DNA of 64,000 nucleotides, taken from assembly GCA_044226015.1 (NCBI GenBank), contig JBGAHS010000004.1, positions 288,001-352,000 on the forward strand, given 5' to 3'. Of the stretch, positions 1-13,311 are shown in pieces. The stretch comes from Candidatus Obscuribacteraceae bacterium (GTDB taxonomy: Bacteria; Cyanobacteriota; Vampirovibrionia; Obscuribacterales; Obscuribacteraceae). The notes beneath the pieces are model-generated. The model saw nothing but the letters and a program-made list of their open reading frames with translations. It did no database searches and had not been told where the DNA came from. The first letter of the stretch is position 1; every line of letters starts with the position of its first letter. Both the position numbers and the translations under genes were made by a program.

Positions 1-2
1 CG

Positions 3-743
3 CCAGAGCTAATTTCGATTTATGGCACAGAAACCTTTGAGAAATTGACAGAAAAAGAGCAGCAATTACTTTCCTTTTTTGAGGCAGTAAATTTCTTCAG
101 CCTGAATATCCATGGCGAGAAGCCGCTTGTCGAGGGCTTAGCAAAACGACTTTATTCAAAGGAGCTGAAAGAGTTTGCTGTTTACCTGCATCATTTTCTT
201 GATGAAGAGAATAAGCACATGATTTATTTTGGTGGATTTTGCCAGCGCTATGCGGGAAAAATCTATCGTGACCGAAAGCTCGTTATTCCCCGAGAATACG
301 AGCCTGGTGAAGATGACTTTCTGTTCTTTGCAAAGGTGATGATATTCGAAGAACTTGTGGATATGTATAACATCAAGATGTCCAGTGATGAAAGACTCGA
401 ACCCATTTCTCGAAAAATCAATCAGGTTCATCATGCGGAGGAAGCTCGGCATCTGGTTTTTGGGCGGCACATGGTTGAGCATCTGTTCCAGAAATATTCA
501 TCTAGCTGGAGTCCTTCGACTCTAATAGCTATGCAAGACTATCTGAAAAACTATGTGGTCGCAACCTGGAAAGAGTATTACAATCCAGATGTGTATAAAG
601 ATGCCTTGCTGGCGAGTCCCTATGAGCTTCTCGAGCAAGCGTGGAACTGTAGCGTGCAGCGCGAGCACCGAAAGAAGATTTCGTCCAGACTGTTGGATTA
701 CCTTAAGCAGCGAAATATGATAGTGGAGTATCCTGAGTTATGA
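3..743 (+). CDS. AurF/CmlI-like ferritin-fold diiron oxygenase (5' end outside the window)
   Basis: The frame is open from base 3 (PELISIYGTETFEKLT..., an AurF-family-like N-terminal segment). Diiron motifs HGEK, DEENKH, FEE and HHAEEARH; the last has the extra His of AurF/CmlI-type sites. Confidence 0.8.
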   Translation, partial: PELISIYGTETFEKLTEKEQQLLSFFEAVNFFSLNIHGEKPLVEGLAKRLYSKELKEFAVYLHHFLDEENKHMIYFGGFCQRYAGKIYRDRKLVIPREYEPGEDDFLFFAKVMIFEELVDMYNIKMSSDERLEPISRKINQVHHAEEARHLVFGRHMVEHLFQKYSSSWSPSTLIAMQDYLKNYVVATWKEYYNPDVYKDALLASPYELLEQAWNCSVQREHRKKISSRLLDYLKQRNMIVEYPEL

Positions 744-991
744 AAAGCGAAGCAGAGTTTCGTGAATCACTACGCAATTGGATTCTCTCAAAGAATGCCA
801 AGGTCAAGCCTGAAGATCTTGCTGATGACACCCCAATAATTGAACAGCGCATAATCACATCGTTGCAGCTTATGGATCTTATTCTTGAACTTGAAAAACT
901 CACTGGAGAGCCTGTCGAAGTAGAAGAGCTAAAGCCCGGAGTTTTCAAAAATATCAACAGCATTTGTCAGAATTTCTTGAGGCGAGAATGA
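740..991 (+). CDS. Acyl/aminoacyl carrier protein (ACP1)
   Basis: 83 aa, acidic. DDTPII..IITSLQLMDLILELE resembles an ACP helix with the conserved Ser. ATGA overlaps with both neighbours. Confidence 0.8.
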   Translation: MKSEAEFRESLRNWILSKNAKVKPEDLADDTPIIEQRIITSLQLMDLILELEKLTGEPVEVEELKPGVFKNINSICQNFLRRE

Positions 992-1848
992 GCATGGCTG
1001 CCTCAATTGACCCTATTGAACTAACTGAATTGCACTGGCAGGAATCTGGACAGGCTTCTTTTAGTGGGTCGCTTCTGAGGCTGTTTCGAAGGCTCGATGC
1101 TATGTTTTGCGATTGGGCGACAACTCTCAACTCGCAGGAATTTATGTTTCCTCCGTTCCTTTCAAGCAAGCAAATGAACAAGCTTGATTATTTCAAGTCG
1201 TTTCCACATCTCATAACCATTCCTGTCACGCTCGAAAGCTCTGCTGAAAATCTGCAAGCATTTGCCGACTCGCCGCTTGATGAAAACTATAATTTGAAAT
1301 TGCCTCAGTTGGCTGCAGCAAAACAGGTGCTGACACCTGCGGCGTGCTACCACTTTTACGATGAACTCGAAGGGGCACAGCTTAACTCAGGGCTCTATTT
1401 GACGACTAGATGTGTCTGTTATCGAAATGAGTTAGCCTATCAACCTCTGCGGCGGCAGTGGGCGTTTTCAATGCGTGAAATTGTATGTATTTCCAGTATT
1501 GATGAGGTTCAGAGCTTCCTTCAGGTCTTTGAGCAAAAATTGGCAGAGTATTTTGCCTTGAACAAGTTTCCTGTAAAATTTGAGTACGCAACTGACCCGT
1601 TTTTCAACCCCCGTTCAAATCCCAAATATTTGCTACAAAAACTTGAACCTGTGAAAAAAGAAATGATATACGACGGTCAGCTTTCGATTGGCTCATTGAA
1701 CTTTCATCGTAATTTTTTCGGTGAAACCTTTCAGATTTCACACAACAAAGAAGCCGCCTACACTGCTTGTGTCGCTTTTGGCATCGAGCGTTGGATGTAC
1801 ATGATTTTGAATGAACGTGGTTTGCAAGAAAATGGGTGGAGCTTCTGA
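988..1848 (+). CDS. Amino acid:[carrier protein] ligase (class II SerRS catalytic-domain homolog, no tRNA-binding domain)
   Basis: Motifs YFKSFPH, TPAACYH, FSMREIV, ATDPFF, SLNFHRNFFG and TACVAFGIERW (Cys/Glu/Cys Zn ligands). About 286 aa. Start set at ATG 988, which overlaps the ACP stop. Confidence 0.85.
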   Translation: MSMAASIDPIELTELHWQESGQASFSGSLLRLFRRLDAMFCDWATTLNSQEFMFPPFLSSKQMNKLDYFKSFPHLITIPVTLESSAENLQAFADSPLDENYNLKLPQLAAAKQVLTPAACYHFYDELEGAQLNSGLYLTTRCVCYRNELAYQPLRRQWAFSMREIVCISSIDEVQSFLQVFEQKLAEYFALNKFPVKFEYATDPFFNPRSNPKYLLQKLEPVKKEMIYDGQLSIGSLNFHRNFFGETFQISHNKEAAYTACVAFGIERWMYMILNERGLQENGWSF

Positions 1849-2813
1849 TGTCATCTTCTCTGGATATTGAAGCTATTGTGAAAGACGCTTACGCGGCTCT
1901 GGATGATGATGAACTTCAGAGAGCAATGGAGCTTGCCGCACTGCTTTTGGAAACGCGGCATGCTCGCGGCTTTGAAATTATGGCGCTCGCCCTGGAAAAG
2001 CAAGATCGATTTGAGGAAGCTATTGATTTGCTGAGAAAGGGCGTTTCGATTATTCCTGACGCTTACCCATTGTGGGAATTAATGGGAAATCTCTATTCCA
2101 AGGAAAAGGAATACGACAAGGCTGAAACTGCCTATGTGACTGCGCTTTCTTGCTATGGTTCTAACAGCGGTTCCATAACATACAACATGGCTGTGATGTT
2201 GCGTCACGCAGGAAAGGCGAAACAAGCATATACCGTCACTGAACATATTCAGGACCCCGCTCTTGCGGTCAAAGTAAATACTTTGCGGGTTTCACTTCTA
2301 AATAGTCTGCAGGAATACGAAGAAGCTGCAGAGCTCGCAAATCAACTTATAAACGAAATTATGTCACTGGAAGAACTCGGTGATGAAGATATGAAAGATC
2401 TCGCGCAAGTCTACGCAGAGCTTGGGCGAGCGATATATTTGGGAACAGGCAACAAACAAGGTGCATTCGAGAATGCCTGGAAGTCGTTAGAGTGGGAGCG
2501 CTCTGAGCCAACAGCACTATGGCTGGTGCGTGAGTTAATTGGTAGAAAGTCAGCCGACTCTCGTTGGTTCAGGTTGGAAGTAGAAGGTCACTGGTACTTC
2601 CCGCTTGAGCAAGGTAAGACGCCACCGAAGTTTCGGGTTACTTATGACATAGTCGCGGACAACATAGATGAAGCTATGATGTTTTCAAAGCATCTCGAGC
2701 CACCAGAAATACGCGAGTCCATGCAAGTGAAATCGGTGAGTGACCGCGGTTCTCATGCGCAATTCACTCAAGGACTCTACTGGCGCAGCCCCTATAATTT
2801 TGTAGTCGGCTAA
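1848..2813 (+). CDS. TPR-repeat protein with an uncharacterised C-terminal alpha/beta domain
   Basis: TPR-like helices (EEAIDLLRKGVSIIPD, LMGNLYSKEKEYDKAETAY). TGATG overlap with the ligase stop. Confidence 0.7.
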   Translation: MSSSLDIEAIVKDAYAALDDDELQRAMELAALLLETRHARGFEIMALALEKQDRFEEAIDLLRKGVSIIPDAYPLWELMGNLYSKEKEYDKAETAYVTALSCYGSNSGSITYNMAVMLRHAGKAKQAYTVTEHIQDPALAVKVNTLRVSLLNSLQEYEEAAELANQLINEIMSLEELGDEDMKDLAQVYAELGRAIYLGTGNKQGAFENAWKSLEWERSEPTALWLVRELIGRKSADSRWFRLEVEGHWYFPLEQGKTPPKFRVTYDIVADNIDEAMMFSKHLEPPEIRESMQVKSVSDRGSHAQFTQGLYWRSPYNFVVG

Positions 2814-2814
2814 T

Positions 2815-3924
2815 ATGAATGAACCATCGATTCTTATCACCGGTGGAAACGGCTATGTCGGAGTCAATTTGGCCGAAGCTCTTTTGGCAGAGGGGCGATA
2901 TGCGATTCAGTTGTACTTACATGCTGTTGATCAGGCAGAACTTGAAAGCAAGGCTGAGCCTTTGCGCGAGCGATTTGCGACCTATGTTAATAGTGGACAG
3001 CTTGTGCTCATTGGCGGCGAATTGTCGAATGATCAACCGTTAACTTCGGTCTCTCCTTCTGGTATTAAACAGATTGTCCATTCGGCAGCTGTAACGCGAT
3101 TCAACGTGGAAGAGGAGCTTGCGAATAAAGTAAACATCTCAGGTTCAAGGCATGTGCTTGAGTTTGCGCGGCAATGTGAAAATTTAGAGTCTATTCAGTT
3201 TCTTTCTACTATTTACGCTGCTGGGCTTCGGACCGGAAAGGTAGCAGAGGAGAGGCTTGAAAAATCGACATTCTCAAATCATTATGAGCGTTCGAAATGG
3301 GAATCTGAAGAACTACTCTTTAAGGAGTTTTCTGACATGCCTTTCAATTTGATTCGAATTGCGACGCTCATCTCTGATAATGCTGCTGGAACTGTCAGTC
3401 AGCAAAATGCATTCCATAACACATTGAAGTTGTTTTACTACGGTCTTCTATCGATATTTCCAGGCGAAAAGACATGTCCCGTTTATTTTGTTACCGGTGA
3501 TTTTGTGATTAATTCGCTGCTCTCTATCATGCACAGTTCGGCTACTGCTAAGGTGTTTCACATTTGTCATCGCGATTTTGAAACAGCTCGCCTTGAGCAG
3601 TTGGTTGATACCGTATTTGATACTTTTGAAAAATATTCAGACTTTAAAACGAGGCGCGTCTTGAGACCTCTCTGGTCTGACGTGGAATCATTCGAACTTC
3701 TGCAAGAAGGCATTGGCGGCTTATCTAATGGAGTTATGTCTCAGGCGGTGTCGAGCGTTGCACCGTTTTCTCGGCAATTATTTGCCCCAAAAGAATTCTG
3801 CAATGACAATTTAAGGAGGGTGCTGCCTTCCTACGAGGCTGAAGATCCTCTTCTATTAATTTCAAACGCAGCGAAGTATCTCGCTGATACAAAGTGGGGG
3901 CGTTTGCTCAACCATGCTAAATGA
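2815..3924 (+). CDS. Extended SDR, thioester-reductase / fatty acyl reductase-like (NAD_binding_4)
   Basis: ITGGNGYVG, HSAAVTRF, VNISG, STIY and YERSK motifs. Confidence 0.8.
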   Translation: MNEPSILITGGNGYVGVNLAEALLAEGRYAIQLYLHAVDQAELESKAEPLRERFATYVNSGQLVLIGGELSNDQPLTSVSPSGIKQIVHSAAVTRFNVEEELANKVNISGSRHVLEFARQCENLESIQFLSTIYAAGLRTGKVAEERLEKSTFSNHYERSKWESEELLFKEFSDMPFNLIRIATLISDNAAGTVSQQNAFHNTLKLFYYGLLSIFPGEKTCPVYFVTGDFVINSLLSIMHSSATAKVFHICHRDFETARLEQLVDTVFDTFEKYSDFKTRRVLRPLWSDVESFELLQEGIGGLSNGVMSQAVSSVAPFSRQLFAPKEFCNDNLRRVLPSYEAEDPLLLISNAAKYLADTKWGRLLNHAK

Positions 3925-4534
3925 AGAAGAACTCTCAAACTATTTTTCAAACGAACTTGGCACTGAGTTGCGATTTTGTGTTCGTTTTGATGAAATTGTT
4001 ATGGAATGCTTGTCGGCGCCAGAACTGGCTTTGCTTACTGGGTTTAAGCATGAGAAAAAGCGAAGTTCTTGGTTGAGAGGGCGGGCGGCGTTGAAAGAAA
4101 TACTGAATGATGTCAGTTCGTCACGAGATACCGCAGCCTTTCCTGTTCCAAATCCTAAATGTTCTTTGAGTCATACAGATTCTGTGGCTGTCTGTGTAGC
4201 GCGTGTGAAAGGCTCAGGCGTGGGCATCGACATTGAGGGGGCAAGAGAAGTGCGTCCGCCGACGAAGAAATTCTACCTCACAGAAATTGAGCAAGAACAA
4301 ATGGATTGTTCATCGCAAGATGATCTACTTCGCATGTGGACAGTAAAAGAGTCGTTGTTTAAGGCAGACATGCAGAATGCTAACAAGACTGTTCTGAAGT
4401 ATGTAACTGAGAATGCGTCACTTTTCACGGGTGTAGCCACCAATGATGGTGTCAGCGGCAAGCTGTATTTTAAGTATGCAAGCAAAAAATTTGGGCAACA
4501 CTGGTTGTCGGTATCGATTGCGATACAGGAGTGA
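3914..4534 (+). CDS. 4'-phosphopantetheinyl transferase (Sfp/EntD-like)
   Basis: SLSHT, GIDIE and WTVKESLFKA motifs. Confidence 0.88.
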   Translation: MLNEEELSNYFSNELGTELRFCVRFDEIVMECLSAPELALLTGFKHEKKRSSWLRGRAALKEILNDVSSSRDTAAFPVPNPKCSLSHTDSVAVCVARVKGSGVGIDIEGAREVRPPTKKFYLTEIEQEQMDCSSQDDLLRMWTVKESLFKADMQNANKTVLKYVTENASLFTGVATNDGVSGKLYFKYASKKFGQHWLSVSIAIQE

Positions 4535-4537
4535 GTC

Positions 4538-5104
4538 ATGAGCAACAAACTTAAAGAAAACGAACTCTGGTTGTTGAGTTTCTACAGGACTTCCGAAATT
4601 AGCGGTGCCTTGTTCTTTGGGCGTCTCTGCAAGTCTTTGCGGCCAGGACCGGTGCAGCATGATATGACCAAACACTTCTCCGATGAGGCGGTGCATTCAT
4701 GGCTTTGGACCGACTGTATCACGAAGATGGGTGCTAGCCCCTTGAAGCTTGCCGACTCATACCAAGATCAATATCTTTCTGTCGCGGGAATGCCTGCTAA
4801 CGTTATGGAAATTCTTGCGTTGACTCATGTTTTCGAAAAGCGGGTGATTCGTCAGTATGCTCTGCATTCGCGGGTTCCAGAGCTTCATGCTGAGATTTCT
4901 GAAACCCTGTCCAAAATAATGGATGATGAAAAGTGGCATCTCACTTGGGTTCATTCTGCCTTAGAAAGCATGGAACCAGAGTATGGCAAAGAATACATTG
5001 AGCAAACTATACAACGCTTCTGGGACGCAGATCAGGAGGTTTATTTACGAACTATGAAAGAACACGAAGAGCGAGTTCGAGATTTGGGGATGCTGCTAGA
5101 ATGA
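4538..5104 (+). CDS. Ferritin-like diiron protein
   Basis: Paired motifs SEISG..DEAVH and FEKR..DEKWH, the four-helix diiron pattern. Confidence 0.8.
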   Translation: MSNKLKENELWLLSFYRTSEISGALFFGRLCKSLRPGPVQHDMTKHFSDEAVHSWLWTDCITKMGASPLKLADSYQDQYLSVAGMPANVMEILALTHVFEKRVIRQYALHSRVPELHAEISETLSKIMDDEKWHLTWVHSALESMEPEYGKEYIEQTIQRFWDADQEVYLRTMKEHEERVRDLGMLLE

Positions 5105-5129
5105 TTCGTGGGCAAAGCGAGTAAAGCAG

Positions 5130-5360
5130 ATGGTTGAAAGCGAAGAATTTAGAGGACGAATCGCAAAGTTTTTGAAAATTGCGCCAGAGCGTGTCAAGGA
5201 TGATGCAATTTTGACTGAACTTGTGAATGATTCTTTTGCGCTGGTTGATATGGTGGTAGAGCTGCAAGAAGAATATGGTGCCAGGCTGACGCAAGAGAAT
5301 TTGAAGGATGTAAGAACCGTCAACGATCTCTATGTTCAGGTCCAAAGCCACTTGAAGTAA
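5130..5360 (+). CDS. Acyl carrier protein (ACP2)
   Basis: 76 aa, acidic, LVNDSFALVDMVVELQEEYG, ending TVNDL. Confidence 0.85.
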   Translation: MVESEEFRGRIAKFLKIAPERVKDDAILTELVNDSFALVDMVVELQEEYGARLTQENLKDVRTVNDLYVQVQSHLK

Positions 5361-5394: not shown

Positions 5395-5612
5395 GACCAA
5401 ATCTCTGAAGCTCTAAAGTCCGAGCGCGAGGACCAAGCGCGAGCTGAAGCTCTAAAGTCTGAGCGTGAGGACCAAGCGAGAGCTGAAGCTCTAGAGTCCG
5501 AGCGTGAGGAGCAAGCGTGAGCTGAAGCTCTAAAGTCTGAGCGTCGGAACCCAGTCCGAGTTCAAGCTCTAAGGTCTGAGCGTGAGGACCAAGCGCGAGC
5601 TTAACCTCTAAT
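5395..5612. repeat. 39-bp tandem repeat, about 5.5 copies
   Basis: Unit CTGAAGCTCTAAAGTCYGAGCGYGAGGACCAAGCGNGAG starts at 5405, 5444, 5483, 5522 and 5561, with a partial unit at 5600. Confidence 0.95.
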
Positions 5613-8508: not shown

Positions 8509-8751
8509 GGCAGCTCTAAAAATCAGATTGACAGCACTTTTCGATTGAGTGATCTGACCTGCGACATTCGTTGGAACTTAAAGCTGCGTAAATTGAAAAT
8601 TGCTTAAGCATGTCGACCCTTTCCGGTTCTCTGTCGTCACGCAGTCAAAGTGAGAATAATGGAATGATGCATCTCTTTGCAAGTTGGTCAGACGCCCAGA
8701 TTATTAGCTATAATATGCTTTGGCGGTTTGAAACTGGTGGTCCGATCTAGA

Positions 8752-10206
8752 ATGTCGCGCGAACATAATCAACAAAACAGTGTTGGAACATCCGTTGAGG
8801 AGCGAGTTATTCAGGGGCAACCGCGGTCGAGTGGAACATTTTTCTGGCGCTCGCCAGTGGTCATCGGCAGCGTTGTAGCTCTTGTGGCTCTCGTAGGTGG
8901 ATTCTTCGCCTGGCAGCACATGCACGCAACGCCGAAGCAGACTAGCAAAGAAGACAGCACCGTTTCGCTCACTGTAAGCACATCGCAAGCGCGTCTCAAC
9001 GAGATAGATCGTCATCTCGAAGTTAATGGGTCAATATCTGCTTGGGACCCTCTCTCGATTGGTGCCGAAACTTCGGCTTTAAGAGTCGAGTCTGTTCTGG
9101 TTGAAGAAGGCGATCATGTTCGAAAGGGACAGATATTAGCAAGCTTGAACTCATCCGTTTTGCGGGCACAGCTGGAGCAATTGAAGGCCCACCTCAACGC
9201 TGACGAAGCTGCACTCAAGAAAGCCATACAGCCTAATCGTGTCGAAGACATCAACTCTATGCGGGCTGCGCTCTCTGCTTCGGAGGCAAATTTGGCGCAG
9301 GAAGAAGCGAATTTGATTCGTTTGAAAGCGAATGCTGCGAACTCGCAGGAAAATGCTCGTCGATACAACGAGCTTAGAAAAGTTGGTGCAGTAAGTCAGA
9401 TGGATGCTGATACCAAGAATACCGACGCCAAAACATCGACAGCAGATGTTTCTGCTGGAGAGAAACGTGTGGATGCGATGCGCTATGCGCTGCATCAGGC
9501 TAAAGAGAGACTTGCCATGGCTGAACGCGGCGGACGGCAGGAGGACATTCAAATCTCTCGTTCCAGTCTAGAAGAAACTCGAGCCAGGCTTTCTCAGCTA
9601 GAAGCGCAAATCGAGCAAACTATTATTCGAGCTCCTTCTGATGGCAAAATTGTCAAACGCGAGGTCCACCTTGGTGAAATAAGTAGTGTTGGAAAAACGA
9701 TGTTTCAGATGGTGCGCGATAGTCGATTTGAGATGCGCGCTCTAGTGCCTGAAGTTGATCTGGCGCGCATTCGTCCAGGCATGAAAGTCACGATGTCCAG
9801 CATGGGACAGAGCACGCCGGTAGTGGGTGTCATCCGCGAGGTGAGCCCGAGTGTTGATGAAAAAACGCGTTTGGGTATGGCAAGAATCGACCTGCCTGAG
9901 GCTGCAGCTAAAGAGATGAAGCCTGGCTTGTTCTATCACGGTGATATAGATTTGGGGCGTGACAAAGCTATTGTTGTGCCATCAAAGGCGGTGCTAAATC
10001 GCAATGAGAAAGATGTGGTTTTCGTTTGCGAAAACGATCAAGCACACTTGCGCGAAGTGAGCATTGGTGAACCTCTGCTGGATGGAACAATCGAAATCCG
10101 TTCGGGACTGAAGGTTGGTGAGCCCGTAATTGTAAGCGGCGCTGGCTTTATGAAAGACAATGATAAAGTTCGAGCAGTTCCGGAGGGTTCCGATTCTCGG
10201 AACTAA
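8752..10206 (+). CDS. RND efflux membrane fusion protein (periplasmic adaptor)
   Basis: TM anchor, VEEGDHVRKGQ lipoyl half, long coiled coil, IRAPSDG. Start moved to ATG 8752. Confidence 0.9.
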   Translation: MSREHNQQNSVGTSVEERVIQGQPRSSGTFFWRSPVVIGSVVALVALVGGFFAWQHMHATPKQTSKEDSTVSLTVSTSQARLNEIDRHLEVNGSISAWDPLSIGAETSALRVESVLVEEGDHVRKGQILASLNSSVLRAQLEQLKAHLNADEAALKKAIQPNRVEDINSMRAALSASEANLAQEEANLIRLKANAANSQENARRYNELRKVGAVSQMDADTKNTDAKTSTADVSAGEKRVDAMRYALHQAKERLAMAERGGRQEDIQISRSSLEETRARLSQLEAQIEQTIIRAPSDGKIVKREVHLGEISSVGKTMFQMVRDSRFEMRALVPEVDLARIRPGMKVTMSSMGQSTPVVGVIREVSPSVDEKTRLGMARIDLPEAAAKEMKPGLFYHGDIDLGRDKAIVVPSKAVLNRNEKDVVFVCENDQAHLREVSIGEPLLDGTIEIRSGLKVGEPVIVSGAGFMKDNDKVRAVPEGSDSRN

Positions 10207-10212
10207 CCTTCA

Positions 10213-13200
10213 ATGCAAATGAATCTCTCTTCCTGGTCTATTCGAAACATAGTACCGACCACTACTCTTTTTCTCATCTTGACAGTGGCTGGTGTGCTGG
10301 GTTTCACGCAATTGGGCATCGATGAAAATCCTAATATCGATGTTCCACTAGTGTCAGTTACCGTGACCCAAAAAGGTGCCTCACCTACTGAACTTGAAAC
10401 TCAGGTCACCAAGAAAGTCGAAGATGCAATCGCTGGTATAAGCAACATACGGCACATCAATTCAGTCGCTAGCGATAGTGTTTCAGTAACCAATATTGAG
10501 TTTGAGATTGGCACTAGCACCGACCGTGCAGTAAACGATGTACGTGATGCTGTTACTAAGATTCGTCAGCAGATGCCACAAGGCATTGAAGAGCCCATAG
10601 TTGCCAGAGTAGATTTTGTTGGCGGTCCCTTTGCCACATTTACTGTAGCTTCGAAAGAGCGAACTCCGGCCGAGTTGAGTTGGATTGTTGATAATGATAT
10701 TGGGCGTGTCCTTCGCACTGTGCCGGGAGTGGGGAAAATCGCCCGCTCTGGTGGCGCTGATCGCGAAGTAAGAGTGAATCTTGACCCTTACAAAATGCTT
10801 TCTCTGGGCGCAACTGCTGACATTGTCAATTCTCAGGTTCGTGCACTAAATATTGATTTGCCGGGTGGTCGAGGCACCGTTGGTGGTGCTGAGCAATCTG
10901 TTAGAACTCTGGGCAGCGCACCTACTGTCGCTAAACTTGCGGCAACTCAAATTGCTCTTCCAAACGGTACAACTGTCAGGCTAGACCAACTTGGAAAGGT
11001 TGTCGATGGAAGCTCAGAAGAGCGCAACCTTGCTTTCTTGAACGGCAAGCCCGTTGTCGCTTTCTGGGTCGTGCGCAGCAATGGCAGCAATCTCGTTGAT
11101 GTTGAAAAGAAAGTAGATACCAAAATTGATGAGCTGCGCAAGATTCTTCCGAAAGACATTCAGCTGACGAAAATAAGAACTACAGGCAGGTTCATTAGAG
11201 AGTCTTACTCAGCGTCTCTGGACTCATTAATCTTCGGGGCGCTTCTGTCACTCGTTGTTATCTGGATTTATGTTCGAGACAATCGTGCGACATTGATTTC
11301 AAGTCTGGCAATTCCGCTTTCGGTAATTCCGACCTTTGCTGTGATGAAGTGGGCGGGGTTCACCTTGAATGGTATGTCACTTCTTGGTCTGGCACTGGTG
11401 ATTGGAATTCTAGTGGACGACGCCATCGTTGAAATTGAAAACATTGTCAGACATTTGCACATGGGCAAAAAGCCCTTCGATGCAGCATGTGACGCTGCCG
11501 ACGAAATTGCTCTGGCCGTAATCGCAACGACAATGACCATCATAGTTGTGTTCGTTCCAGTAGCTTTTATGGGAGGTATTCCGGGGCAATTCTTCAAACA
11601 ATTTGGATTGACCGTCGCTGTCGCCGTTTTCTTTTCACTGATGGTTGCTAGAATGCTGACGCCGATGATGGCAGCTTATATGATGAAAGAATTGCCTGAA
11701 GAAGACCATGAAGACTGGATGGCTAAGGCATTCTCTCGTTCACTTGAATGGGCATTAAAGCATCGTCTTACTTCAGTTGGCGTGGCATTTTTGATCTTTG
11801 TTGGCAGCATAGTCATGTTCAAAACTATGCCGACTTCTCTTATCTCAAATATCGATAGAAGCGAATCTGTAATGGATATTTCACTTCCACCGGGTGTTTC
11901 CGTGAACGATGTCAGATCTGTAGCAGAAAAGGCTTCAGCGATTTTCATGGCACACTCTGAAGTAGATTCAATATTCATTACCGATAGTGGCGATTCTCAG
12001 ATCAACAAAGGCACAATGTTTGTCGAGCTTGTTCCAAAAGACAAGCGGAAGATCGGGCAGCAGAAATTTGAAGACACAATCCGTAAGGAACTTGACGCTA
12101 TACCTGGAGTGCGCTTTGGATTTTATCGCTCAATTGGCGGTGGAACCAAACCCTTGCAGATTGCGCTCACCTCGGAAGACCCTGACGAACTTGCGAAATA
12201 TTCGGAACGACTACTTAACGAGATGCGTTCTATTCCAGGACTCTATGATTGCAATTCGAGTGCAGCGGTTTTGCGGCCTGAAATTGAAGTTAAGCCTGAT
12301 TTTGCCAGAGCTGCAGAGCAAGGCGTCTCGGTTTCAGCTATCGCTCGCACCGCGTTGATCGCAACGTTGGGCGATACAGATTACAACATGGCGAAATTCA
12401 ATTTGAAAGATCGTCAAATCAATATTCGCGTTCAGTTAGACCCGCAATATCGCAAAGATATTCAGGTACTTGCAGGGTTGCAGGTGCAGGGTTCGGAAGG
12501 GCGGCTAGTGCCACTGCGTTCGGTGGCTGAGATTAAGTTCGGCAGCGGTCCAGCTGAGATTACCAGGTTTGATCGCGCTCGCCAAATCACTGTTGATGCC
12601 GGTTTGAATGCCGACACTACTCTGGGCGAAGCGATGAAAGCTGTGCATGAGTTGAAAGCCTACAAAGAAATGCCTGCTTCGATTAGAGAGCAACCAATGG
12701 GTGACAGTGAAATTCAGAGAGATGTTTTTACCGGTTTTGGAACAGCCATAGGCTATGCAATCTTATTGATTTACGCTGTTCTTGTACTTCTGTTCGGTGG
12801 TTTCCTGCATCCAATTACAATCATGGTATCACTGCCGCTGTCGCTATGCGGTGCATTGCTTGGTTTATGGATGACCAATAATTCCCTGGGCATGTATGGA
12901 CTCATCGGCATTGTCATGCTTATGGGATTGGTCACCAAGAATGCAATTCTGCTCGTAGAATATTGTTTGAAAGCTATGAGAGCAGGCATGACTCGTGAAG
13001 AGGCAATCAGAGCTGCTGAATCCATAAGGATGCGACCAATTGTTATGACTACAATTGCGATGATTGCAGGCATGCTACCTATTGCGATGAAATGGGGCGC
13101 TGGTTCTGAAGCCAGGGCACCAATGGCAATCGCCGTCATAGGCGGACTCATCACATCAACAATTCTGACATTGGTAATTGTTCCAGTAGTCTTCACCTAC

Positions 13201-13311
13201 ATAGATGATTTCCAAAACTGGTTACTTAATTTGTTCAAGAAGAAGAATTCTCAGGAAAGCAGTGCCTCCTCGGAAGAGGCTCAATCAAAGCCCGCGAGCA
13301 CAAGGCGCTAG
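10213..13311 (+). CDS. RND efflux permease (AcrB/AcrD/AcrF family)
   Basis: 1032 aa; GILVDDAIVEIEN, GLVTKNAILLVE and RMRPIVMTT motifs. Confidence 0.95.
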   Translation: MQMNLSSWSIRNIVPTTTLFLILTVAGVLGFTQLGIDENPNIDVPLVSVTVTQKGASPTELETQVTKKVEDAIAGISNIRHINSVASDSVSVTNIEFEIGTSTDRAVNDVRDAVTKIRQQMPQGIEEPIVARVDFVGGPFATFTVASKERTPAELSWIVDNDIGRVLRTVPGVGKIARSGGADREVRVNLDPYKMLSLGATADIVNSQVRALNIDLPGGRGTVGGAEQSVRTLGSAPTVAKLAATQIALPNGTTVRLDQLGKVVDGSSEERNLAFLNGKPVVAFWVVRSNGSNLVDVEKKVDTKIDELRKILPKDIQLTKIRTTGRFIRESYSASLDSLIFGALLSLVVIWIYVRDNRATLISSLAIPLSVIPTFAVMKWAGFTLNGMSLLGLALVIGILVDDAIVEIENIVRHLHMGKKPFDAACDAADEIALAVIATTMTIIVVFVPVAFMGGIPGQFFKQFGLTVAVAVFFSLMVARMLTPMMAAYMMKELPEEDHEDWMAKAFSRSLEWALKHRLTSVGVAFLIFVGSIVMFKTMPTSLISNIDRSESVMDISLPPGVSVNDVRSVAEKASAIFMAHSEVDSIFITDSGDSQINKGTMFVELVPKDKRKIGQQKFEDTIRKELDAIPGVRFGFYRSIGGGTKPLQIALTSEDPDELAKYSERLLNEMRSIPGLYDCNSSAAVLRPEIEVKPDFARAAEQGVSVSAIARTALIATLGDTDYNMAKFNLKDRQINIRVQLDPQYRKDIQVLAGLQVQGSEGRLVPLRSVAEIKFGSGPAEITRFDRARQITVDAGLNADTTLGEAMKAVHELKAYKEMPASIREQPMGDSEIQRDVFTGFGTAIGYAILLIYAVLVLLFGGFLHPITIMVSLPLSLCGALLGLWMTNNSLGMYGLIGIVMLMGLVTKNAILLVEYCLKAMRAGMTREEAIRAAESIRMRPIVMTTIAMIAGMLPIAMKWGAGSEARAPMAIAVIGGLITSTILTLVIVPVVFTYIDDFQNWLLNLFKKKNSQESSASSEEAQSKPASTRR

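Follow-up and report, generated by a model that had tools for sequence, protein, structure and literature searches.

A widely conserved bacterial operon that probably joins a fatty chain to carrier-bound, N-oxygenated glycine

Amino acid:[carrier protein] ligases are a long-known group of enzymes to which few pathways have been assigned. Among the closest described systems are the glycine-nitronate cassettes, of which the enteromycin carboxamide pathway was reportedly worked out by He and Ryan (Nat Chem, 2021). In the available excerpts of PMC9967187 and PMC11611017 these cassettes (enteromycin carboxamide; akazaoxime/A-76356) combine carrier-bound glycine, an oxygenase of family PF11583 and an S-adenosylmethionine (SAM)-dependent O-methyltransferase, and the PF11583 members PvfB, HamC and EtmA are described as acting on carrier-bound amino acids (PMC11611017). 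A related logic is described for the Ham (fragin/valdiazen) and Pvf systems (excerpts of PMC11659414, PMC12154687 and bioRxiv 2021.09.29.462267), in which, according to PMC11659414, an amino acid held on a carrier, an AurF-like N-oxygenase, a second oxygenase, reductive release and acylation come together. Ligases of the Bll0957 / Atu2573 type load glycine or alanine according to the accessible part of PMC5370406, and ChlB3 and CerJ are acyltransferases with a Cys-His-Asp triad, CerJ moving malonyl to a hydroxyl (PMC9573744, in excerpt). The locus compared with them here is an operon that begins just before, and runs into, a 64,000-nucleotide stretch of a Candidatus Obscuribacteraceae genome (assembly GCA_044226015.1, contig JBGAHS010000004.1; G000:C7:288001-352000), referred to below as the window. 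The operon is real and widely conserved, and it probably loads glycine on a carrier, oxidises the nitrogen, joins a fatty chain and exports the product. The original prediction, made from the letters of the window, knew of no characterised cluster with this combination of genes, and no paper on it was found in the literature searched, a coverage that takes in neither MIBiG nor the closest primary paper.

Proposed route and conserved core

The preferred reading, to which a probability of about 0.45 may be given, is an assembly line free of nonribosomal peptide synthetases (NRPS) and centred on carrier protein 1 (ACP1), on which glycine would be loaded, N-oxygenated, fatty-acylated and reductively released, the N-O oxygen alkylated and the resulting lipid exported. 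A 4'-phosphopantetheinyl transferase (PPTase) would prime both carriers of the operon, the amino acid ligase would put glycine on ACP1, and the AurF-type enzyme would oxygenate the amine of glycyl-ACP1 to the hydroxylamine, oxime or nitronate level. A long chain would be activated by the fatty-acid ligase and, where both genes exist, modified by a ferritin-like enzyme on carrier protein 2 (ACP2); at loci with neither gene it would come from the acyl-CoA/ACP pool. The KAS III-like enzyme, with its Cys-His-Asp triad, would then attach the chain to the oxidised glycyl unit, at its N or at its O; a short-chain dehydrogenase/reductase (SDR) would cut the product loose from ACP1 in aldehyde or alcohol form, and an ICMT-family enzyme would methylate the N-O oxygen. 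The product exported would most likely be an acyl-ethanolamine-like lipid that is N-oxygenated and O-methylated. Each of these reactions, their order and the product are inferred from genes, motifs, folds and co-occurrence, which were themselves observed directly.

Conserved co-occurrence in other genomes, which the original prediction had left to be looked for, was seen: oxygenase, ligase, SDR and KAS III stand together in 71 of 132 loci, from Obscuribacterales, other Cyanobacteriota, Actinomycetota and metagenomes. The per-gene counts use only loci with enough flanking sequence ("with room"); among these ACP1 adjoins the ligase in 74 of 74. The sample consisted of 7 genome loci, the best 80 of 238 metagenome loci and 5 same-phylum loci, 92 in all, forming 78 clusters at 90% ligase identity, with locus L104 excluded from the counts. 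Within it the SDR was found in 46 of 46 loci with room, the oxygenase in 51 of 52, KAS III in 40 of 41, ICMT in 35 of 37, the ferritin-like gene in 34 of 36, ACP2 in 30 of 32, the fatty-acid ligase in 26 of 29 and the PPTase in 29 of 41, and the gene order is nearly constant among the compared loci. A SAM transferase is present in 60 of the 71 core loci, as ICMT in 41 and as a DUF3419 protein in 19 and never as both; the 11 loci with neither are contigs that start inside KAS III. The DUF3419 loci occupy three separate places on the midpoint-rooted tree of 53 oxygenases, in which kin are not independent. The fixed core is made up of oxygenase, ACP1, ligase, KAS III and SDR together with a SAM transferase.

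The ferritin-like gene is absent from 14 of the 52 core loci with room, and ACP2 is absent from the same 14 (it occurs in 37 of 38 loci with the ferritin-like gene and in 0 of 14 without), 13 of which carry a GNAT gene. Both diiron enzymes of the original prediction are present, and they are unequal: the ferritin-like one is optional together with ACP2, with which it forms an add-on module, probably for the acyl chain. The TPR protein (321 aa, 1848..2813, + strand; Pfam TPR), taken at first for a pathway member, falls outside the conserved set. Of 53 other loci with room, 4 have its gene, every one of them from Obscuribacterales; the gene is a lineage-specific insert and probably plays no part in the chemistry. 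For its C-terminal part there was no Atlas match above 0.77. In 64 of the 71 core loci no gene stands between the ligase and the SDR that follows it; five of the exceptions are due to the TPR insert. Because genes for MMPL exporters (15 of 71 core loci) and ABC ATPases (8 loci) stand at these loci, the evidence points to an exported lipophilic product.

The operon is patchy in its distribution: within the order 9 of 107 genomes have it, within the genus 5 of 7 others, and within the phylum 6 of 301. An oxygenase match was found in 33 of 401 Micromonosporaceae genomes, a count that takes in three unpublished genomes not used further; of the 32 regions obtained, 21 hold the core with KAS III and SDR, and the rest are sister cassettes or are cut short. 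Protein matches, and these alone, extend the ligase to homologues named Acidobacteria, Blastocatellia, Fibrobacteres and Manganitrophaceae, and the ferritin-like protein to several cultured actinomycetes. Several variants were met. Genes for DUF3419, GNAT and radical-SAM/SPASM proteins are inserted before ACP1 at L014:6343-9696 and L015:16-3276, L014 being without ICMT; at L010:3839-7378 a single protein of 1179 aa unites the fatty-acid ligase with MFS and acyltransferase domains. Loci L150-L153 carry DUF3419, MFS, dimethylformamidase-beta-like and MMPL genes on the oxygenase's other side and have no fatty-acid ligase match within 20 kb. In two Obscuribacterales (L003:5505-6761, L004:14575-18565) unrelated genes separate the ferritin-like gene from ACP2. 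The copy at L104:5917-9996 is rearranged: its ligase is truncated, reading frames are broken, and the contig gave no match for the oxygenase.

The whole operon comprises 11 genes, of which the window shows eight, in the order fatty-acid ligase, ICMT, KAS III, oxygenase, ACP1, amino acid ligase, TPR, SDR, PPTase, ferritin-like gene and ACP2. The eight open reading frames first reported, all on the + strand, were recovered with their overlaps (740, 988, 1848 and 3914) and gaps (1, 3 and 25 bp) exactly as given, and a Pfam scan of their products bore out the family labels. The 5' part lies outside the window, as had been said, and retrieval of the upstream sequence gave three more genes and the start of the oxygenase, the junctions being a 7-base gap, a 2-base gap and a 4-base overlap of KAS III with the oxygenase. 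The remark that no adenylation or ketosynthase domain is visible is correct for the window and does not extend to the whole operon, which has an AMP-binding ligase and a KAS III-like gene upstream. The operon is not an assembly artefact, because one contig of an independent run from another study (X2) spans all 11 genes (L001:10211-19440), with 62 differences and one intergenic gap. The 40 differences listed all fall within window positions 3744-4210, a 470-base stretch mostly of the PPTase gene and possibly a recombined segment. In its own genome the fatty-acid ligase alone among the operon genes has paralogues at E 1e-5. The nearest named relatives are Candidatus Obscuribacterales, with a ligase identity of 55-67%.

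As for the surroundings, a 39-bp tandem repeat of 5.3 copies lies between ACP2 and a convergent TPR gene (window 5405-5611), X2 being without 78 bases of it. HlyD-type and AcrB-type efflux genes follow 3.3 kb downstream (window 8677-13311), and HlyD-like genes occupy the same place in L005-L007. Before the operon stands a radical-SAM gene (L001:8959-10240 = G000:C7:282959-284240) flanked by tandem repeats of periods 16 and 42; it has the direction of the operon here and the opposite one in L004-L007, possibly through a local inversion. Further upstream (G000:C7:262052-276379) several integrase-like open reading frames and a 1359-aa protein with an N-terminal helix-turn-helix-like segment were labelled by eye.

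Carrier loading and oxidation

The amino acid:[carrier protein] ligase (286 aa, 988..1848, + strand) has the catalytic core of a seryl-tRNA synthetase (SerRS) without the tRNA-binding domain; it scores 28.9 bits against tRNA-synt_2b, just below the cut-off of 29.3, and its best PDB match is Bll0957 (E 7e-27, aligned residues 35-284). The residues C120, R146, R156, E164, N238, H240, C261 and A263 are kept in 124 of 127 sequences scored, C120/E164/C261 presumably forming a Cys/Glu/Cys zinc site and R146/R156 presumably belonging to the class II motifs. Every alignable pocket residue of Bll0957 is kept, and A263 aligns with Bll0957 Ala281 (chain position 301 minus a 20-residue tag), a residue which we take, numbering included, to favour glycine; the ligase is probably glycine-specific. 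Against NCBIfam NF005479, the Bll0957-type model, it reaches 132.7 bits where the cut-off is 357, and it belongs to a different subfamily. The two ligases with Gly at the A263 position (L156, L173) lie outside these operons, in sister cassettes; in one of them, L156:4822-10357, the neighbours are MaoC, PALP and hexapeptide-transferase genes, which suggests a larger amino acid. Another orphan cluster, on a Bacillus wiedmannii plasmid (L109), has a ligase homologue with KAS III-like genes, three carriers and xanthine-dehydrogenase-family genes.

ACP1 (83 aa, 740..991, + strand; PP-binding E 2e-4), with Ser41 in 101 of 101 sequences scored, is the predicted carrier of the ligase, and ACP2 (76 aa, 5130..5360, + strand; PP-binding E 1e-8), with Ser35 in 47 of 47, is probably the fatty-acyl carrier. 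The PPTase (206 aa, 3914..4534, + strand) matches Pfam ACPS at E 1e-9.

The AurF/CmlI-type diiron oxygenase (286 aa, window 1..743, + strand) starts at C7:287883, 118 bases before the window, and matches PF11583 at E 2e-26 for the part in the window and E 2e-36 for the whole protein. It has the CmlI/AurF fold with seven invariant ligands (a 3-His/4-Glu set). The nearest relatives outside these operons share 32-39% identity and lie beside carriers and loaders; in the six plasmid regions opened a nitronate monooxygenase was found in three and a methyltransferase in two, and four of nine Micromonosporaceae sister loci have the monooxygenase. Such gene company is what PMC9967187 and PMC11611017 describe, at second hand, for glycine-nitronate pathways. 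On a Streptomyces plasmid (L096:3687-13508) an oxygenase/carrier/ligase cassette adjoins type II ketosynthase and chain-length-factor genes.

Acyl-chain enzymes and competing readings

The carrier-based pathway first outlined stands in so far as its amino acid:carrier ligase, AurF-type oxygenase and thioester-reductase-like SDR are conserved in distant bacteria; its cargo and the roles of its diiron enzymes had to be revised. The cargo is most likely a fatty chain, because the operon includes a fatty-acid ligase, a methyltransferase and a KAS III-type acyltransferase, all on the + strand upstream of the window. The fatty-acid ligase (617 aa, C7:284497-286350) has long-chain-fatty-acid--CoA ligases as best models, below their cut-offs, and its Catellatospora counterpart a fatty acyl-AMP ligase. 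The ICMT-family protein (192 aa, C7:286358-286936) gives E 6e-8 against 4a2n, an ICMT structure of the Methanosarcina type. The KAS III-like protein (315 aa, C7:286939-287886) has a C126/H270/D275 triad in 71 of 71 sequences, aligning with that of ChlB3 and of the ChlB3/CerJ acyltransferase type; the Cys-His-Asn triad of FabH is absent from it, Gln239 and His270 occupying the FabH His and Asn positions. The ferritin-like protein (188 aa, 4538..5104, + strand) carries a two-His carboxylate diiron set and belongs to an unnamed family, for which 360 representatives were counted at E 0.001. It passes no family-model cut-off, the best Pfam model being DUF455 (E 0.0016). It probably acts on the acyl chain, because it is optional together with ACP2 and is fused to a carrier in some relatives (3 of 7 distant homologues scanned).

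The extended SDR (369 aa, 2815..3924, + strand; NAD_binding_4 E 4e-26), of thioester-reductase or acyl-reductase type, keeps GxxGxxG, S131, Y157 and K161 in 83 of 85 sequences. If it were a fatty acyl reductase giving a fatty alcohol, KAS III might add to that alcohol a nitroacetyl or oximinoacetyl group from ACP1, as CerJ adds malonyl, and the ICMT-family enzyme would yield an O-methyl nitronate or oxime ether lipid. The match to fatty acyl-CoA reductase 7eoz (E 1e-15) and to PRK07201 would suit such an ester, as would the adjacency of SDR, ferritin-like gene and ACP2 in most loci and the hydroxyl-directed precedent of CerJ with the same triad (PMC9573744, in excerpt). A capped nitronate would also be expected to dispense with nitronate monooxygenase, and none of the 71 core loci has one. 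A search of the own genome with the monooxygenase of L162 gave no match at E 1e-5. The terminal reductases of NRPS and polyketide synthases (PKS), however, outscore the fatty acyl-CoA reductase among the PDB matches (E 5e-22 to 2e-20), and the SDR keeps its place by the ligase at the 14 loci without ferritin-like gene and ACP2 and also at L031, where these two have moved, which is the main reason for assigning it to ACP1; the ester is judged unlikely. A carbon-carbon bond is quite improbable. Nitroacetyl-ACP1 would here act as a malonyl-like extender without decarboxylation, C-acylated by KAS III and reduced to a sphingoid-like 2-nitro-1,3-diol or a nitroketone or nitroalkene lipid; a nitronate carbanion should not need the His/Asn pair of FabH that this KAS III lacks, and the SDR weakly matches the OleD model (E 0.0015). 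That score, however, is far below those for thioester reductases, the triad is of the acyltransferase type, and no precedent was found in the literature searched. The preferred assembly line and these two routes agree on a fatty chain joined to N-oxygenated glycine, and together they make this shared element likely.

Several observations weigh against the preferred assembly line. The donor of ChlB3 and CerJ is an unusual acyl unit, which fits the ester better, and in NCBIfam the SDR scores higher with PRK07201 (E 9e-23) than with the thioester-reductase model (E 2.5e-17), both below cut-off, so that by sequence it may reduce the fatty chain instead. The exchange of ICMT for DUF3419, which we take to be an aminocarboxypropyl transferase, for that reason indicates a SAM-dependent step that is not necessarily a methylation. 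Loci were taken in order of how closely they resemble the query, and related ones are not independent of each other. In the tree of 53 sequences the operon oxygenases form a clade of their own (38 rows, support 100/100, branch 1.33), apart from the enzymes linked to nitronate monooxygenase, and their first Glu ligand, Glu79, lies two residues earlier than in the sister enzymes (Ile at that position in 16 of 16, Glu/Asp two places later in the six inspected); because of this separate clade and shifted ligand the reaction may differ from that of the nitronate-linked enzymes. It may be imagined, then, that the enzyme leaves the nitrogen alone and hydroxylates or cleaves the glycyl carbon or the acyl chain; the product would then be an acyl-glycinol, a fatty amide or a nitrile, plain or modified, and the superfamily is indeed described as performing C-H oxygenation and desaturation also (PMC12154687, in excerpt). 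This is nevertheless rather improbable: the fold and three-His ligands match CmlI/AurF well above other diiron proteins, and the oxygenase adjoins ACP1 and is kept when the acyl module is lost. It is very improbable that the ferritin-like protein is an aldehyde-deformylating oxygenase that works with the SDR and shortens the released aldehyde by one carbon. Among its top fold matches a protein like this enzyme scores no better than one of unknown function and one like PaaC, and Foldseek gave no match at E 0.001 or better; the carrier fusion in three relatives points to a tethered substrate, and the gene is lost together with ACP2.

Comparison with described pathways

With this operon an amino acid:[carrier protein] ligase finds its place in a route that is both complete and conserved, and for which one host, Catellatospora bangladeshensis (L008), is in culture. 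A doubtful but wider proposal is that many environmental bacteria make lipids with an N-O bond that form an undescribed class (N-methoxy acyl-ethanolamines or O-methyl nitronate lipids). In their synthesis stand-alone enzymes would replace the adenylation, condensation and reduction domains of NRPS, the methyl group on the N-O oxygen would come from an ICMT-family protein, and acyl-ACP would be tailored by an unnamed ferritin-like family. If true, this would be a new lipid class with an N-O bond, and would give functions to a distinct AurF-like clade, to a carrier-linked ferritin-like family without a Pfam model and to bacterial ICMT/DUF3419 transferases. Standard cluster finders may miss the operon because it has no NRPS and PKS domains.

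With Bll0957 / Atu2573 the operon ligase shares the SerRS-like core, the missing tRNA-binding domain, the adjacent carrier and the pocket residues, and differs in gene neighbourhood. The KAS III-like protein has the Cys-His-Asp triad and His+5 spacing of ChlB3; overall similarity is low, the profile match (E 5e-13) standing below that to a FabH (8e-19). A reductase beside a small ferritin-like diiron protein of similar fold recalls the cyanobacterial acyl-ACP reductase and aldehyde-deformylating oxygenase; the operon protein, however, has 13-16% identity to the latter, no family match and carrier-fused relatives, and it is optional.

With the glycine-nitronate cassettes the operon as predicted would share carrier-bound glycine, a PF11583 oxygenase and perhaps the SAM-dependent O-methylation, and the sister cassettes seen here hold ligase, carrier and oxygenase with a nitronate monooxygenase or a methyltransferase. 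The operon differs in its separate oxygenase clade, in the absence of nitronate monooxygenase from its core loci, in the replacement of NRPS/PKS by KAS III, a reductase and a fatty-acyl arm, and in its transferase, which is ICMT or DUF3419 where the sister cassettes have LCM or class I O-methyltransferases. With Ham and Pvf it would share the whole sequence from carrier-bound amino acid to acylation; these use an NRPS (HamD), a condensation domain and valine, whereas the operon has a stand-alone ligase, carrier, SDR and KAS III, and its conserved set includes no aminotransferase. No NRPS with adenylation, thiolation and reductase (A-T-R) domains occurs among the 11 genes, the sole AMP-binding gene being the stand-alone fatty-acid ligase. 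For the sub-cassette of ligase, carrier and oxygenase the glycine-nitronate pathways offer a close precedent. By the features compared, the operon would work at its front end like those cassettes and in its overall logic like Ham and Pvf, and appears to be a member of neither.

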